This document shows, one piece after another, positions 17,470 to 36,083 of a stretch of DNA of 64,000 nt (position 1 is the stretch's first letter; every line of letters begins with the position of its first letter). The notes below the pieces were generated by a model. That model ran no database searches and was not told where the DNA came from. It worked only from the letters and a program-made list of their open reading frames with translations. This DNA comes from Microcoleus sp. (GTDB taxonomy: Bacteria > Cyanobacteriota > Cyanobacteriia > Cyanobacteriales > Microcoleaceae), in the NCBI GenBank assembly GCA_042408215.1, contig JAYFMW010000028.1, positions 224,001 to 288,000 on the forward strand, given 5' to 3'. Both the position numbers and the translations under genes were made by a program.

Positions 17470-18808
17470 TTGACATTCTCACCGGGCTGAAGCCACGGTG
17501 ATTCTAAACATCACTGTTTAGGCTTCCTCTTTCGGCGATCCGACTTATTTAAAAGAGTTTCCTCATTCAAACTCTTGTTGATATCTCCAGAGGCGTTTGA
17601 GGTTTCCGTGTGCCCCACGGTACGCAATCCAAGTTCTAATATGTTGCGAGCGGCGTTCCAATCTCGGTCTAAAACGAATCCACAATGTGGACAAATATGT
17701 GTTCTTTGACTTAATGACTTTTTCGCCACTTTCCCACAACTAGAACAATTTTGACTTGTATAGTGTGGCGGTACTGCAACAGTTGCCACCCCAAACACTT
17801 TGCCAAAATATTCAATCCAATTTCTAAAAGCTGTCCAAGCCGCATCTGATATCGACTTGGATAGCTTTTTGTTTTTGACCATGTTACGCACCTGCAAGTC
17901 TTCATAGGCTACCAAGTCGTTAGACTGGACTACGCACCTTGCTAATTTCACAGCAAAGTCTTTACGCCGCCTGCTTACCTTGAGGTGTTTTCTACTTAAA
18001 CGATTTCGAGCCTTAGCTCTATTTTTAGAACCTTTCTGCGTTCGAGAAAGTCTACAATTAAGCTTTTTTAACGATCTTTCGGACTTTCTTAGATGGCGCG
18101 GGTTCTCTACGGTATTACCGTCAGAGTCTGTGTAGAAATGAGTTAGCCCTACATCCAAACCGATTGTTTTTCCGGTCTGCTCCCGCTTTTCGTTTCGTTC
18201 AGCGTCAATACAAAATTGCACGTAGTAGCCATCGGCTCGACGAACTACGCGCACTCGTTTAACTTGACTTAGCTGATAGAAATGTAGGTCACGAGTTCCC
18301 CATAATTTAAAAATTCCGGCTTTAAATCCATCAGTGAAAGTTATATTTCGTCGGTCTTCAGAAAGCTTCCACCCACAGGTCTTGTATTCAACAGAACCGT
18401 GCGTTTCATGCTTTTTGAAGCGCGGAAAACCTTTCTTTCCTGGTTTTGCCTTCTTGCAGTTGTCAAAGAATCGTGCAATCGCTGACCAAGCTCTTTCAGC
18501 AGAAGCTTGCCTTGCCATTGAGTTGAGTTTACTGGCCCAAGGAAATTCTTTGGCAAGAACTACGCAATAAGCGCTTAAGTCGTAGCGACCTACCCCTGGG
18601 GTATCCATCCAGTACCTGATGCAGCTATTACGAATGAAGCGAGCAGTACGAATGGCTTCGTCTAGCCGTTCGTACTGCTCGCTTTTCCCTTCTAGCTTGG
18701 CTTCAAATACTAACATTTACGTCGAGTGAGTGAATATAAAGACTATAACAGAGTTCTGGAGAAATTAAAGCCGTCCTATAAGGACGGGGCTTTAGACCCA
18801 GCTTTTTG
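17470..18808 (-). mobile_element. IS200/IS605-family (IS1341-type, TnpB-only) insertion sequence
   Basis: Minus-strand left end TTAC|CAAAAAGCTGGGTCTAAAGCCCCGTCCTTATAGGACGGCTTT; right-end hairpin TCACCGTGGCTTCAGCCCGGTGA ending GTCAA. No tnpA. Confidence 0.85.
17511..18716 (-). CDS. tnpB: RNA-guided endonuclease TnpB
   Basis: RuvC GLDVG / YEDL / DRDWNAARN and Zn finger CSSC...CPHC, all intact. Confidence 0.95.
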   Translation of the reverse strand: MLVFEAKLEGKSEQYERLDEAIRTARFIRNSCIRYWMDTPGVGRYDLSAYCVVLAKEFPWASKLNSMARQASAERAWSAIARFFDNCKKAKPGKKGFPRFKKHETHGSVEYKTCGWKLSEDRRNITFTDGFKAGIFKLWGTRDLHFYQLSQVKRVRVVRRADGYYVQFCIDAERNEKREQTGKTIGLDVGLTHFYTDSDGNTVENPRHLRKSERSLKKLNCRLSRTQKGSKNRAKARNRLSRKHLKVSRRRKDFAVKLARCVVQSNDLVAYEDLQVRNMVKNKKLSKSISDAAWTAFRNWIEYFGKVFGVATVAVPPHYTSQNCSSCGKVAKKSLSQRTHICPHCGFVLDRDWNAARNILELGLRTVGHTETSNASGDINKSLNEETLLNKSDRRKRKPKQ

Positions 18809-32787: not shown

Positions 32788-33528
32788 ATGATGCCTCGGA
32801 TACTTGTTATTGATGATGACGCGGCGATCGCCGAACTCGTAGCCATCAACCTAGAAATGGCTGGGTACGAAGTAACCCATGCAGAAGACGGCATCAAAGG
32901 TCAGGCACTAGCCATACAAATGCTCCCCGACCTGATCGTCCTAGACCTGATGCTGCCTAGAGTAGACGGATTCACAGTGTGTCAGCGCTTGCGGCGAGAC
33001 GATCGCACAGCAGACATTCCCGTCTTGATGTTGACAGCCTTAAGTCAAACTCAAGACAAAGTAGAAGGCTTCAACTCCGGCGCCGACGACTACCTGACCA
33101 AACCCTTTGAACTAGAAGAGATGCTGGCGCGAGTGCGAGCCCTACTGAGGCGCACAGACCGCATCCCCCAAGCCGCCAAACACTCAGAAATCCTGAATTA
33201 TGGCCCGCTGACCCTTGTCCCCGAAAGGTTTGAAGCCGTTTGGTACGTTAAGACAGTCAAACTGACCCACCTAGAGTTCGAGTTGCTCCACTGCTTGCTC
33301 CAGCGTCACGGTCAAACAGTCTCTCCCAGCGAAATTCTCAAAGAAGTCTGGGGCTACGACCCTGACGACGACATCGAAACAATTCGCGTACACATCAGAC
33401 ACCTGAGAACCAAGATGGAACCCGATCCCCGCCATCCTCGGTACATCAAAACCGTATACGGGGCCGGTTATTGTCTGGAGTTACCCAGCAACGAGCAAGT
33501 AGCCGAGGAAAGCAAATCATCTGCTTGA
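32788..33528 (+). CDS. rpaA: OmpR-family response regulator RpaA
   Basis: Characteristic [38 protein letters not shown] and [16 protein letters not shown]. Confidence 0.92.
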
Positions 33529-33657: not shown

Positions 33658-33849
33658 TTGACACTCCCCGGTCTAAAGACGCGGGGATGCTTAAGGATAA
33701 TTTTTGGGGGATGAATCCACCCAAATCTTGATGCTTAAAGGGTTTGTCAATAACCCACTACCCACTCGCCCATTGCTGAGTCTATGGCTACTTGTGGTAG
33801 GCATTTGCTTCCCAGACCTGCTTCTGTGTATCCATCCCACATTTTTATG
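33658..33849 (-). mobile_element. Degenerate non-autonomous IS200/IS605 derivative (element A)
   Basis: Right end CCCCGCGTCTTTAGACCGGGGAGTGTCAA; left end TTAC|CATAAAAATG. Confidence 0.55.
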
Positions 33850-33875
33850 GTAACAGAATGTGGTTTGTGTCTTGC

Positions 33876-34261
33876 TTGACACTCCTCGACCTGAAGGTAC
33901 GAGGATTCTTGGCTCACCGAGACCACTTAAACTAGATTACTTGCAGTCTCTAGCAAGCGAGGTGGGACTCTCCCCAAGCGTTAATTCGGGTATGCCCTAC
34001 CCTATTTGCTTTTGGGCAAGTCCTGTTTCAGTTTGAAGCAAATTCGCTTCAAATGCCGATCGCCCGTGCTCCTCTGAATCTTTTACCTACTGCGAGGTGG
34101 GGTCTAGAAAAATGCAGTAGAACCGCTTAGATTCAATTTTCAAGGTTCAGCGCTTTGTCTTTCGACAGCTAGGTTTTTAGAGTGGTTGATTACCTTTCTA
34201 CTACTACAAGCATACAGCAAAGCCGATGCTCAAATCACGGGGTTTTAGACCCATTTTTATG
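33876..34261 (-). mobile_element. Protein-free IS200/IS605 derivative retaining an omegaRNA-like scaffold (element B)
   Basis: Left end TTAT|CATAAAAATGGGTCTAAAACCCCG; right-end hairpin CCTCGTACCTTCAGGTCGAGG-AGTGTCAA; scaffold stems covary with the 3' end of tnpB at 17511. Confidence 0.75.
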
Positions 34262-34336
34262 ATAAGCCCCTCAAGCTTTTGACATCCTCCCGCCACTCAC
34301 CTGAGTACAGGTAGAGTGGGGGATTCCTAAACATCG

Positions 34337-35503
34337 CTATTTAGGTTTCTGCTTCAAAGCACCTGGCTTCGGAGATTTATGCTCTTCGGCTCTTACGGTT
34401 GCTCCACAGACTGACACGGCAAGCCCTGCCGCCAAAATATTCTTACTGGCATTGATATCACGGTCATGGTTAATCCCACACCTAGGACATTCCCACTCTC
34501 TAATATTCAATGGCAGTTTATCGATAATATGCCCACAGTTTCCGCATCTTTTAGAGCTTGGGAACCAGCGGTCAATTTTAATCAGTTCTCGCCCATACCA
34601 CTGGCATTTATAGGCAAGTTTTCGCATCAATTCGCCCCAACTAGCATCGCTAATCGACAGAGCAAGTTTATGGTTTTTGACCATATTTTTGATAGCCAAG
34701 TCTTCAACTACGATCGTTTGGTTTTCACGAACCAGTTGAGTTGTCAGCTTCTGCAAAAAATCTTTCCTAGCATCGGTTATTTGCGCGTGGACTTGAGCCA
34801 CTTGCACCCGTGCCTTGTGTCGATTATTACTCCCTTTTTGCTTGCGAGAAAGTGCTTTCTGCACCCGTCTCAACTTCTTGCGGAGTTGTTTAAAATGTTT
34901 GGGGTTAGCAATCTTATCCCCGTTACTGGTAGCTATCAGGCTAGTTATCCCTACGTCCAATCCGATAGATTTATCGGATTTTGGCAGTTGGGCAATATTA
35001 GTATCTACCAGCAAGGATACAAACCAACGACCACTAGCATCAAGTTTGACGGTAATAGTAGACGGTGTACATCCTTCAGGAATTGGTCTACTCCATTGAA
35101 TCGGCAAGGCTTCGGTACATTTAGCCAGAAATACTTGTCCGTCTTTCCACCGGAAAGCAGACTTAGTAAATTCCGCACTACCGCCATGATGCTTCTTTTT
35201 AAAGTTGGGGTATTTAGCGCGTCCAGCCCAAAAGTTACTGAACGCTTTTTGAAGGTGTCTCAGTCCTTGTTGGAGCGGTACACAACTAACTTCGTTCAGA
35301 AACTTAAGATTTTCCTCTTGTTTCCAACTTGTTAGCATGGAGGAACTTTCGTTATACCCGATTCGCTCTTGTCTTTCGTACCAAGCCTCGGTTCGAGCCG
35401 CTAAAGCTTTGTTGTACACTAGCCGAACACAGCCAATCGTCCGCCGCAAGAGACTTTCTTGCTTGGATGTGGGGAATACTCGGTAGCGATAGGCTTTTTC
35501 CAT
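34337..35503 (-). CDS. tnpB: RNA-guided endonuclease TnpB (element C, right end at 34279)
   Basis: KAYRYRVFPT HTH; GLDVG / VEDL / DRDINASKN; CGNC...CPRC. Confidence 0.95.
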   Translation of the reverse strand: MEKAYRYRVFPTSKQESLLRRTIGCVRLVYNKALAARTEAWYERQERIGYNESSSMLTSWKQEENLKFLNEVSCVPLQQGLRHLQKAFSNFWAGRAKYPNFKKKHHGGSAEFTKSAFRWKDGQVFLAKCTEALPIQWSRPIPEGCTPSTITVKLDASGRWFVSLLVDTNIAQLPKSDKSIGLDVGITSLIATSNGDKIANPKHFKQLRKKLRRVQKALSRKQKGSNNRHKARVQVAQVHAQITDARKDFLQKLTTQLVRENQTIVVEDLAIKNMVKNHKLALSISDASWGELMRKLAYKCQWYGRELIKIDRWFPSSKRCGNCGHIIDKLPLNIREWECPRCGINHDRDINASKNILAAGLAVSVCGATVRAEEHKSPKPGALKQKPK

Positions 35504-35536
35504 ATTCACATTCTAACATATTATTTGTGAGGTTCA

Positions 35537-35761
35537 TAAAAAAAGTTCGGTAAGTGGGAAACTCAGAGGCTTTAGCCCTGAGAGGGAAACGACGCGGGTG
35601 GTTTTAACCACCGTGAATCTTCAATATGTGCTATAATTGAGGAAAGTAAGCACAACCTGGATTTCCAGCGAGTGTCTAAAGGCTTTAAGGCTCACGCCGT
35701 TGCGCTCCATAGTTCGCCTAATCCTCAAGAATCTCAGTGTCTTTAGACCTGAGAGTGTCAA
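35537..35761 (+). mobile_element. Short non-autonomous IS200/IS605 derivative (element D)
   Basis: Matching hairpins CTCAGAGGCTTTAGCCCTGAGAG and CTCAGTGTCTTTAGACCTGAGAG-TGTCAA; internal TGcTATAAT. Left boundary approximate. Confidence 0.65.
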
Positions 35762-36083
35762 AGTGCAAGCCAAAGATTTGTTCGCGAACTCATCCACCCC
35801 TACGCGGTTGAGAGCTTCGCTTGTCAATTTACTTGGGGTGGAATCGTCCGCTCATCCCCATTCCTCCCACCGCCAAGCTGAGTACAGCTATGGCGGGGGT
35901 CTCCTGGGGGTTTAGATGACTCAATTGACATCTTTCTCAACAGGTAACTCGCCGTGACAACCCAGGCAAAAAAATCCTTCCCAGCCGAAGCAGCATCTTT
36001 TCCCTGCTGCGCCGGCAACGCCCGCTTAATGAATCTTTCCGGCCGCCATTTAAGCAGTGCCTGTGAGTGCCAGCCCTTCTGAC

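Follow-up and report, generated by a model that had tools for sequence, protein, structure and literature searches.

A protein-free IS200/IS605 element of Microcoleus sp. with a pseudoknotted, boxA-like leader ahead of an omegaRNA-like scaffold

In a 64,000-nucleotide stretch of the Microcoleus sp. assembly GCA_042408215.1 (contig JAYFMW010000028.1, positions 224,001 to 288,000 of the forward strand; hereafter the window), we analysed a protein-free IS200/IS605 element of 386 bp that occupies positions 34261-33876 on the minus strand, with TTAT outside its left end and TCAA as its right terminus. We firmly place its family, which behaves as functional in all comparative tests, with the known stand-alone omegaRNA elements, as a variant of them. 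The element itself is, judging from its sequence, very probably a non-autonomous IS200/IS605 element of the palindrome-associated transposable element (PATE) type that draws both TnpA and a nuclease in trans. Beyond this, we propose an RNA-only IS200/IS605 element with a leader that would enable an untranslated guide RNA to be made and to survive, TnpB being supplied in trans, a proposal that we hold to be as probable as its negation.

Both ends and the lack of a gene had been described in an earlier note on this DNA, made from its letters alone, and we confirmed that the left end follows TTAT at 34261 and that the right end is the TCAA at 33876. The longest open reading frame inside the element encodes 58 aa, and a 63-aa frame overlaps merely its last 7 bases, in agreement with the absence of any frame of 60 aa or more. 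The motifs of the note were likewise found in place, GAACCTTGAAAA at 34148-34137 and stems at 34120-34114/34093-34087 and 34053-34043/34042-34032. Its duplicated 10-mer does occur at 34101 and 33966 but is specific to this copy, the second site differing in most homologues. The minus strand of the element folds with z = -4.0, and none of 100 shuffled sequences folded equally well. From left to right on that strand the element and its target site comprise:

34262..34265, minus strand: TTAT target tetranucleotide, that is the transposon-adjacent motif (TAM) or left cleavage site, outside the element; the TAM covaries with the left-end guide across the family.
34220..34261, minus strand: IS200/IS605 left end with AAAA guide and subterminal hairpin, of the same end type as the tnpB elements of the genome; homologues have precise empty sites.
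34209..34214, minus strand: -10 box TATGCT with a predicted start at ~34202; the TAnnnT spacing is kept in homologues.
34171..34202, minus strand: PK1, a 5'-terminal H-type pseudoknot with stem 34202-34198/34185-34181, a loop AGGT that pairs with ACCT at 34174-34171, and an A-rich linker.
34152..34169, minus strand: variable hairpin immediately 5' of the boxA-like motif, from folding and homologue comparison.
34137..34153, minus strand: boxA-like motif, 16/17 identical to the rRNA leader motif; its 3' half pairs also with 34113-34109.
34052..34151, minus strand: multiply pseudoknotted core of helices A, B, C, D, E, F and G, from covariation; helix F is broken in the window copy.
34003..34053, minus strand: joint of leader and scaffold, with an optional hairpin, an A-rich linker and a conserved short hairpin, from homologue alignment.
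33876..34002, minus strand: TnpB omegaRNA-like scaffold with a GGGCA-loop hairpin, the main stem and the right end TCAA, from covariation and similarity to tnpB 3' ends.

Homologous copies in relatives, which the note had asked to be sought, revealed a widespread cyanobacterial family whose flanks are distinct in 89 of 91 copies, as a homing guide needs. The whole element recurs at 80-94% identity in 8 other genomes among 101 related genomes searched, and the part from ~34204 to the right end is present in many more related genomes, with other left ends. A pattern for the first 55 nt returned at least 120 GTDB loci; of the 80 that carry a title, 79 are cyanobacterial and one, a Mollicutes match, is due to chance, while the closest named records among the matches listed are Microcoleus and Tychonema. 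In 91 of 120 listed loci a right end is reached 296-409 nt on with no tnpB between, 20 are cut by the edge of the locus, and 9 failed the right-end rule (inspection showed a right end in 4, truncation in 3 and a run of N in 1, and the last is the chance match). A tnpB gene lies within reach in just one of the 120, there upstream of and outside the element. A covariance model of the 5' domain matched 25 of 150 genomes of the phylum, with at least 18 copies in one genome, and a pattern for the minimal core matched 49 of 400 genomes, the reversed control giving none among the matches listed. Full unannotated copies also reside in Nodularia phages and a Dolichospermum plasmid; the first search pattern had 0 matches in viral contigs.

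These elements bear the marks of mobility. When the flanks of 15 homologues were joined, 7 gave junction-spanning matches in the genome of the window, with 4 distinct scarless TTAT or TTAC empty sites, and the other 8 gave no such match in that genome. Left ends of the window type (n = 48) combine TTAC with AAAG in 27 cases and TTAT with AAAA in 15 (other combinations, 6), a second left-end type has TTAT with AAAA in 26 of 28, and the TCAA terminus is kept in 88 of 91 homologues. Identical copies occur at different sites, indicating recent multicopy spread, and 12 of 20 matches to Y1 TnpA in the genome of the window are near-full and stop-free. On the basis of the ends, the covariation of TAM and guide, the empty sites and the multicopy spread, excision and insertion would be driven by TnpA.

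Some copies are decayed or interrupted. L031 (G000:C10:148270-148087) is a decayed 5' domain without ends that lies ahead of tRNA-Arg, whose 3' end recurs ~600 bp downstream in a manner resembling an integration scar. We considered a core chromosomal RNA and rejected it: the tRNA-Arg copy is found in one other of 60 genomes of the genus, further deleted there, as expected of a decayed insertion. In the decayed copy L032 (G000:C30:582466-582900) the leader is interrupted by another insertion sequence, and in L083, L084, L180, L185, L193 and L215 small palindromic repeats are inserted in the RNA, mostly in loops or at helix ends, the rest being intact.

The 3' part of the element carries the signature of an omegaRNA under RNA-level selection, as the note had supposed: scaffold stems covary strongly, the sequence is homologous to tnpB 3' ends, and the flank varies as a guide would. 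The alignment offered earlier, to the tnpB element at 17470-17620, holds in so far as GGGTA-GGGCA-TACCC (34002-33988) and its counterpart (17620-17606) are located there, but this element is a distant relative only (score 48). Among the 143 TnpB-like loci of the genome, 25 have a right-end region near the scaffold (scores 102-144), and most of these 25 TnpBs share 60-66% identity with the window TnpB at 18716-17511, whose own score is 48. Given their low scaffold score, the two window TnpBs formerly put forward as partners are not the best candidates; the top-ranked entry of this comparison is an artefact, its scored region containing the element. A pairing of the scaffold loop with the terminal TGTC can form in 84-89 of 91 sequences but is nearly invariant and therefore weakly supported. 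Model RAGATH-18 (RF03064) produced matches of 22-26 bits at the scaffold main stem in 11 of 20 homologue loci, below its gathering score of 44.9 and covering 71 positions of the 3' part alone.

Over its last 140 nt the element resembles the TnpB C-terminus (E to 1e-5), which is expected because the scaffold overlapped the end of the gene. That the last 127 nt derive from the end of a tnpB frame might suggest an ordinary PATE whose interior is decayed tnpB or a set of DNA-level palindromes devoid of RNA function. Such a reading is very improbable and largely refuted: the 5' domain lacks similarity to TnpB (best E 0.08 against 96 TnpB frames, with scattered hits on both strands), so that the middle region is not decayed tnpB, and pseudoknotted covariation, G-U pairs and a conserved -10 box speak for an RNA.

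An internal promoter is borne out by a conserved -10 box at fixed spacing: of 119 loci, 114 carry TAnnnT 20-27 nt upstream of the first conserved motif, compared with 61 of 460 control windows. In the window, TATGCT at 34214-34209 predicts a start near 34202, the first base of the first stem, from which we infer an RNA of ~327 nt plus guide. This predicted RNA occupies the position that tnpB has in coding elements, with the promoter where that of tnpB would be. In 16 loci short antisense frames, ribbon-helix-helix-like by eye, lie between the left end and the promoter; the one tested had no Pfam match. Arc proteins of the ribbon-helix-helix kind are reported, in the accessible part of a preprint (10.64898/2026.09.24.754181), to repress IS605 promoters. 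Part of the window stretch is contained in 14 RNA sequencing runs, four of which we compared as assembled contigs that convey neither strand nor ends nor level. One RNA-library contig equals 33957-34291 without a difference, at a depth of 9.5 versus 2.7-5.8 for contigs of a response regulator gene; it extends past the predicted start and carries no information on strand or level. In run X14, one contig joins the right end of the element (33876) to 33696, after another TTAT inside the surrounding repeat, pointing to a second insertion site or an adjacent deletion.

Several copies are situated directly upstream of co-directional genes and some insertions are common to several species (L003-L008). 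This distribution would suit elements kept as mobile promoters, with promoter and boxA leader mainly driving read-through into neighbours and the omega part a passenger. We judge this quite unlikely, since covariation is as strong in the scaffold hairpins as in the leader, many copies point towards convergent genes or are located within other repeats, and the spread of identical copies fits selfishness.

The ~150-nt 5' domain, left unexplained in the note, turned out to be a conserved, portable and pseudoknotted module, a larger meaning than had been seen. Mutual information across 91 sequences resolved a 5' H-type pseudoknot, followed by a variable hairpin and by a core that helix A closes. 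Inside this core the short helix B has a loop with two partners, the loop of hairpin E (forming helix C) and bases downstream (forming helix D); the remainder of the hairpin E loop pairs further downstream (helices F and G). Its portable minimal module consists of helices D and E plus ACCTTGAMAA, GGTTC and GGTAAAA. In a leader alignment of 42 sequences both partners vary in 24 of 46 pairs and pairing holds in 90.2% of cells, a level that none of 500 shuffles attains and that falls to 33-46% with slid partners. As an independent check, we selected 120 metagenome loci solely by unpaired motifs; of the 101 distinct cores that they contain, 96 form helix E and 85 form helix D, versus means of 16 (E) and 35 (D) and maxima of 26 and 48 when partners were swapped. 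Strong covariation among homologues, which the note had named as a test, is thus seen in the leader helices as well as in the scaffold stems.

The comparison with Rfam that the note also called for yielded no match at gathering score in the window for Rfam 15; over the element, even E values up to 10 brought no hit of relevance, and none of 20 divergent cores matched. A likeness of PK1 to preQ1-I, tmRNA pk1 or pistol was not borne out by Rfam. Our literature search found no paper describing the leader, the supplements of omegaRNA and RNA-motif surveys being outside its reach; the leader is an RNA module lacking from Rfam 15 and apparently undescribed.

The core is compact, with nested pseudoknots and nearly invariant junction bases, and it travels as a unit. 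These traits could denote a catalytic RNA of a new class, self-cleaving or otherwise, that would release the omegaRNA with a defined 5' end; the likeness to boxA would then be secondary. The core has conserved bases in the linker before helix D and in the D-E loop, as the hatchet ribozyme has (PMC4604424 and PMC6561176, in their available parts), and around two helices of the window copy a CAA-like linker, a GG run, GCAG and AAAA follow one another much as in hatchet. We nevertheless think a catalytic core improbable. No Rfam ribozyme matches, the invariant stretch is explained by boxA, in the class whose RNA begins with the core there is little 5' sequence to remove, and TnpB can trim its own RNA, 5' extensions included (available text of PMC10278001). 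Hatchet itself (RF02678) was rejected: its model matches no copies in 5 genomes, no P1 hairpin precedes the CAA linker, GCAG varies and is base-paired, and the bases corresponding to the invariant G63-C64 and G66 are variable here and paired within helix E. A large structured RNA 5' of the omegaRNA in an IS605-type element is shared with IStrons, the fusions of group I introns and IS605, as far as the sources consulted describe them. We rejected this kinship too, on the lack of an Rfam match, an RNA start inside the element that leaves the left end unspliceable, and the TCAA end in 88 of 91 copies.

The same core heads at least four types of scaffold and right end, with different left ends, and this promiscuity fits a general service rather than a TnpB-specific contact. 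The 120 metagenome loci end in TCAA (58), TCAG (15), TCAC (7) or TTGAC (1), 23 show no recognised end and 16 are cut. In one class the core starts ~3 nt after the predicted start, behind TTGACA/TATACT-type promoters. The flanks of this core-first class have a median GC of 0.545 (25 loci) and 0 copies of the highly iterated palindrome HIP1 in 11,665 nt, versus 0.43 and 5 in 13,233 nt; because these flanks are GC-richer and free of HIP1, the hosts of the class are probably not cyanobacteria. In L304, L308 and L317 a long and different RNA follows the core, with no recognised TCAA-type end in the stretch and no Rfam match, possibly a guide RNA of another nuclease family.

The boxA assignment of the note, which had invoked the rRNA boxA of cyanobacteria, agrees with the motif's matches to the rRNA and CRISPR leaders of this very genome. 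Allowing up to 2 mismatches, the 17-mer at 34153-34137 has 8 sites in the 7.36-Mb genome: the element itself, 4 with rRNA-leader sequence (of which 3 were confirmed to precede 16S and one lies at a contig edge), 2 in CRISPR leaders and 1 elsewhere. Identity is 16/17 to the rRNA leader and 14/15 to the rRNA spacer boxA, and a NusB gene is present. According to the accessible part of PMC13753749, boxA recruits NusB-S10 to rRNA and CRISPR transcripts, in a complex that impedes intrinsic termination as well, and boxA is known from exactly these two kinds of leader. Our motif shares with them a promoter-proximal position, after a hairpin and ahead of an untranslated RNA; unlike them, it lies on a transposon and within a pseudoknot with its 3' half paired, Rho was not detected in the host, and the predicted transcript is ~350 nt long. 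The variable base of the motif covaries with its helix C partner, ~30 nt downstream, so that the motif would be free just while that partner is unmade; we infer transient, co-transcriptional use of boxA as the simplest reconciliation. On G000:C29 the trailer after the 23S gene is complementary to the boxA region of the spacer; it is also similar to the sequence ahead of GGTTC in many leaders, which may be chance.

In the mechanism that we propose, TnpA made elsewhere would excise and insert the element via its ends, and the internal promoter would yield the ~327-nt RNA plus guide, whose 3' 127 nt would serve as an omegaRNA that TnpB from the matching subfamily takes up in trans. Following the known homing model, the loaded TnpB would cut the empty site and the element would be copied back. 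The 5' ~150-190 nt would replace the tnpB frame by a leader that gets the untranslated RNA made and kept: its boxA-like motif would load NusB-S10 on the nascent RNA, and its pseudoknots, a structure derived from covariation, may keep the 5' end inaccessible up to the binding of TnpB, which would then trim off the leader. This task of the leader is the less certain step, a best guess about as likely to be right as wrong; next come a ribozyme and a gating function.

The particular insertion in the window is nested in MITE-B, another gene-less IS605-type element, ~300 bp long and after TTAT, of which 14 further copies exist (e.g. G000:C1:90749 and C6:331444). The features concerned are:

33856..33875, minus strand: predicted guide, identical to 14 TTTAT-preceded sites inside MITE-B copies.
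33658..33875, minus strand: right part of the host mini-transposon MITE-B that carries the insertion, recognised from its copies elsewhere in the genome.
34279..35915, minus strand: neighbouring, separate IS200/IS605 element with tnpB at 35509-34337, inserted at TCAT, absent from the second haplotype and not the parent of our element.

The guide matches the 14 intact MITE-B copies at 20 of 20 positions. At 34279-34262 (minus strand) the left 85 bp of MITE-B are missing and the left end of our element sits directly on the original TTAT site of MITE-B, which may reflect a left-end-to-left-end deletion or a composite move. Contig C23 (G000:C23:1-32035) is a near-identical second version of window 23.6-60.4 kb, differing mainly in the presence or absence of insertion elements; at the internal site of MITE-B it has a different element of ~195 bp and the neighbouring tnpB element is absent, the insertion thus being polymorphic in the assembly. 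Both TTAT sites read TGAT and AGAT in C23. MITE-B has its own omega-like 3' part common to many tnpB loci, and its summed contig depth in RNA libraries is high, which in a multicopy repeat is no measure of expression. Either the guide is not used for cutting here (through damage to this copy, TAM mismatch or gating), or one mini-transposon is set to home into another.

A guide that persists with 14 perfect, TAM-flanked chromosomal matches raises the possibility that the leader is retained and either dampens or switches cleavage by TnpB, or brings in another factor, so that TnpB would be sequestered or targets silenced. The alternative pairings of the core, the inhibition of TnpB in cis by 5' mRNA sequence (in the part of PMC10278001 at hand) and the difference between the TAM of the element and that of the closest TnpBs would all agree with such gating. 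However, the self-match concerns this one insertion, polymorphic and partly damaged, guides are unrelated across copies, and the joining of the module to unrelated scaffolds argues against a fitted contact; to gating we give the same low probability as to a catalytic core.

Returning to a leader that serves the making and survival of the guide RNA, we note several observations that weigh against it. First, the fold has its weak points: the count of further pair types does not exceed that of shuffles (157/500), the first 55 nt were selected by pattern, the sequences from which the structure was derived overlap with those tested, and the window copy carries one A.C mismatch in the PK1 stem (P1) besides the broken helix F. 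Second, some gene-less elements have PK1 alone and others the core alone; since these exist, and MITE-B has 14 copies with neither, the leader is not required for mobility. Third, of the 19 best-matching TnpB loci examined, 14 follow TTAC and 5 were unresolved, whereas the element follows TTAT (as do two more distant TnpB loci), and the guide on a TTAT-cutting TnpB would match 14 chromosomal sites. Fourth, the Rho RNA-binding domain PF07497 had no match in this 99.98% complete genome, so that classical antitermination is without an obvious opponent; NusB-S10 binds single-stranded boxA, and the pairing of the motif's 3' half covaries (C-G 70, A-T 9, T-A 6 and T-G 4 of 91); and in the core-first class the motif lies ~3 nt after the predicted start. 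Of the antiterminated guide RNA envisaged in the earlier note, the boxA-like motif stands and classical antitermination is weakened, given the missing Rho domain and the paired 3' half.

Around these nested elements, an OmpR-type response regulator gene (32788-33528, plus strand; RpaA-like by eye) is convergent with them, and a short frame at 35915-35637, in the left part of the neighbouring tnpB element, resembles a broken tnpA by eye and is outside the Y1 match set. The strand that breaks helix F (34063-34057, minus strand) carries a HIP1-like GCGATCG, a change common to L009, L033, L035 and L031.

Gene-less elements whose omegaRNAs are used in trans have been described (PMC10055086, PMC10691335). 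With the PATE-like minimal elements of Meers et al. (PMC10055086) and the stand-alone omegaRNAs of Altae-Tran et al. (PMC10691335) our family has in common both ends, the lack of a gene, an omegaRNA scaffold with a flank-derived guide and the need for TnpA and nuclease in trans. The accessible portions of those descriptions contain no 5' structured domain, boxA or portable leader; here a 150-190-nt leader and a predicted promoter of its own accompany several scaffold classes. The accessible text of PMC10691335 calls the biological role and biogenesis of stand-alone omegaRNAs open, and the family offers a testable answer to how a guide RNA is produced without its mRNA. It also adds an abundant, strongly covarying fold that is lacking from Rfam 15, a candidate for ribozyme and structure work. 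In its boldest form, which we put forward tentatively and think more likely wrong than right, the leader would define a novel kind of structured RNA, a portable boxA-pseudoknot occurring in more than one phylum, by which any TnpB guide scaffold becomes an independent RNA-only parasite via the host rRNA transcription complex, with an active fold (self-cleaving, or a co-transcriptional switch that releases Nus factors and gates TnpB), here arming one mini-transposon against 14 copies of another. If true, this would be a transposon that uses the Nus/boxA system and a handle on the role of that system in Rho-less cyanobacteria, and a natural leader that stabilises the guides of several TnpB clades could serve compact genome editors.
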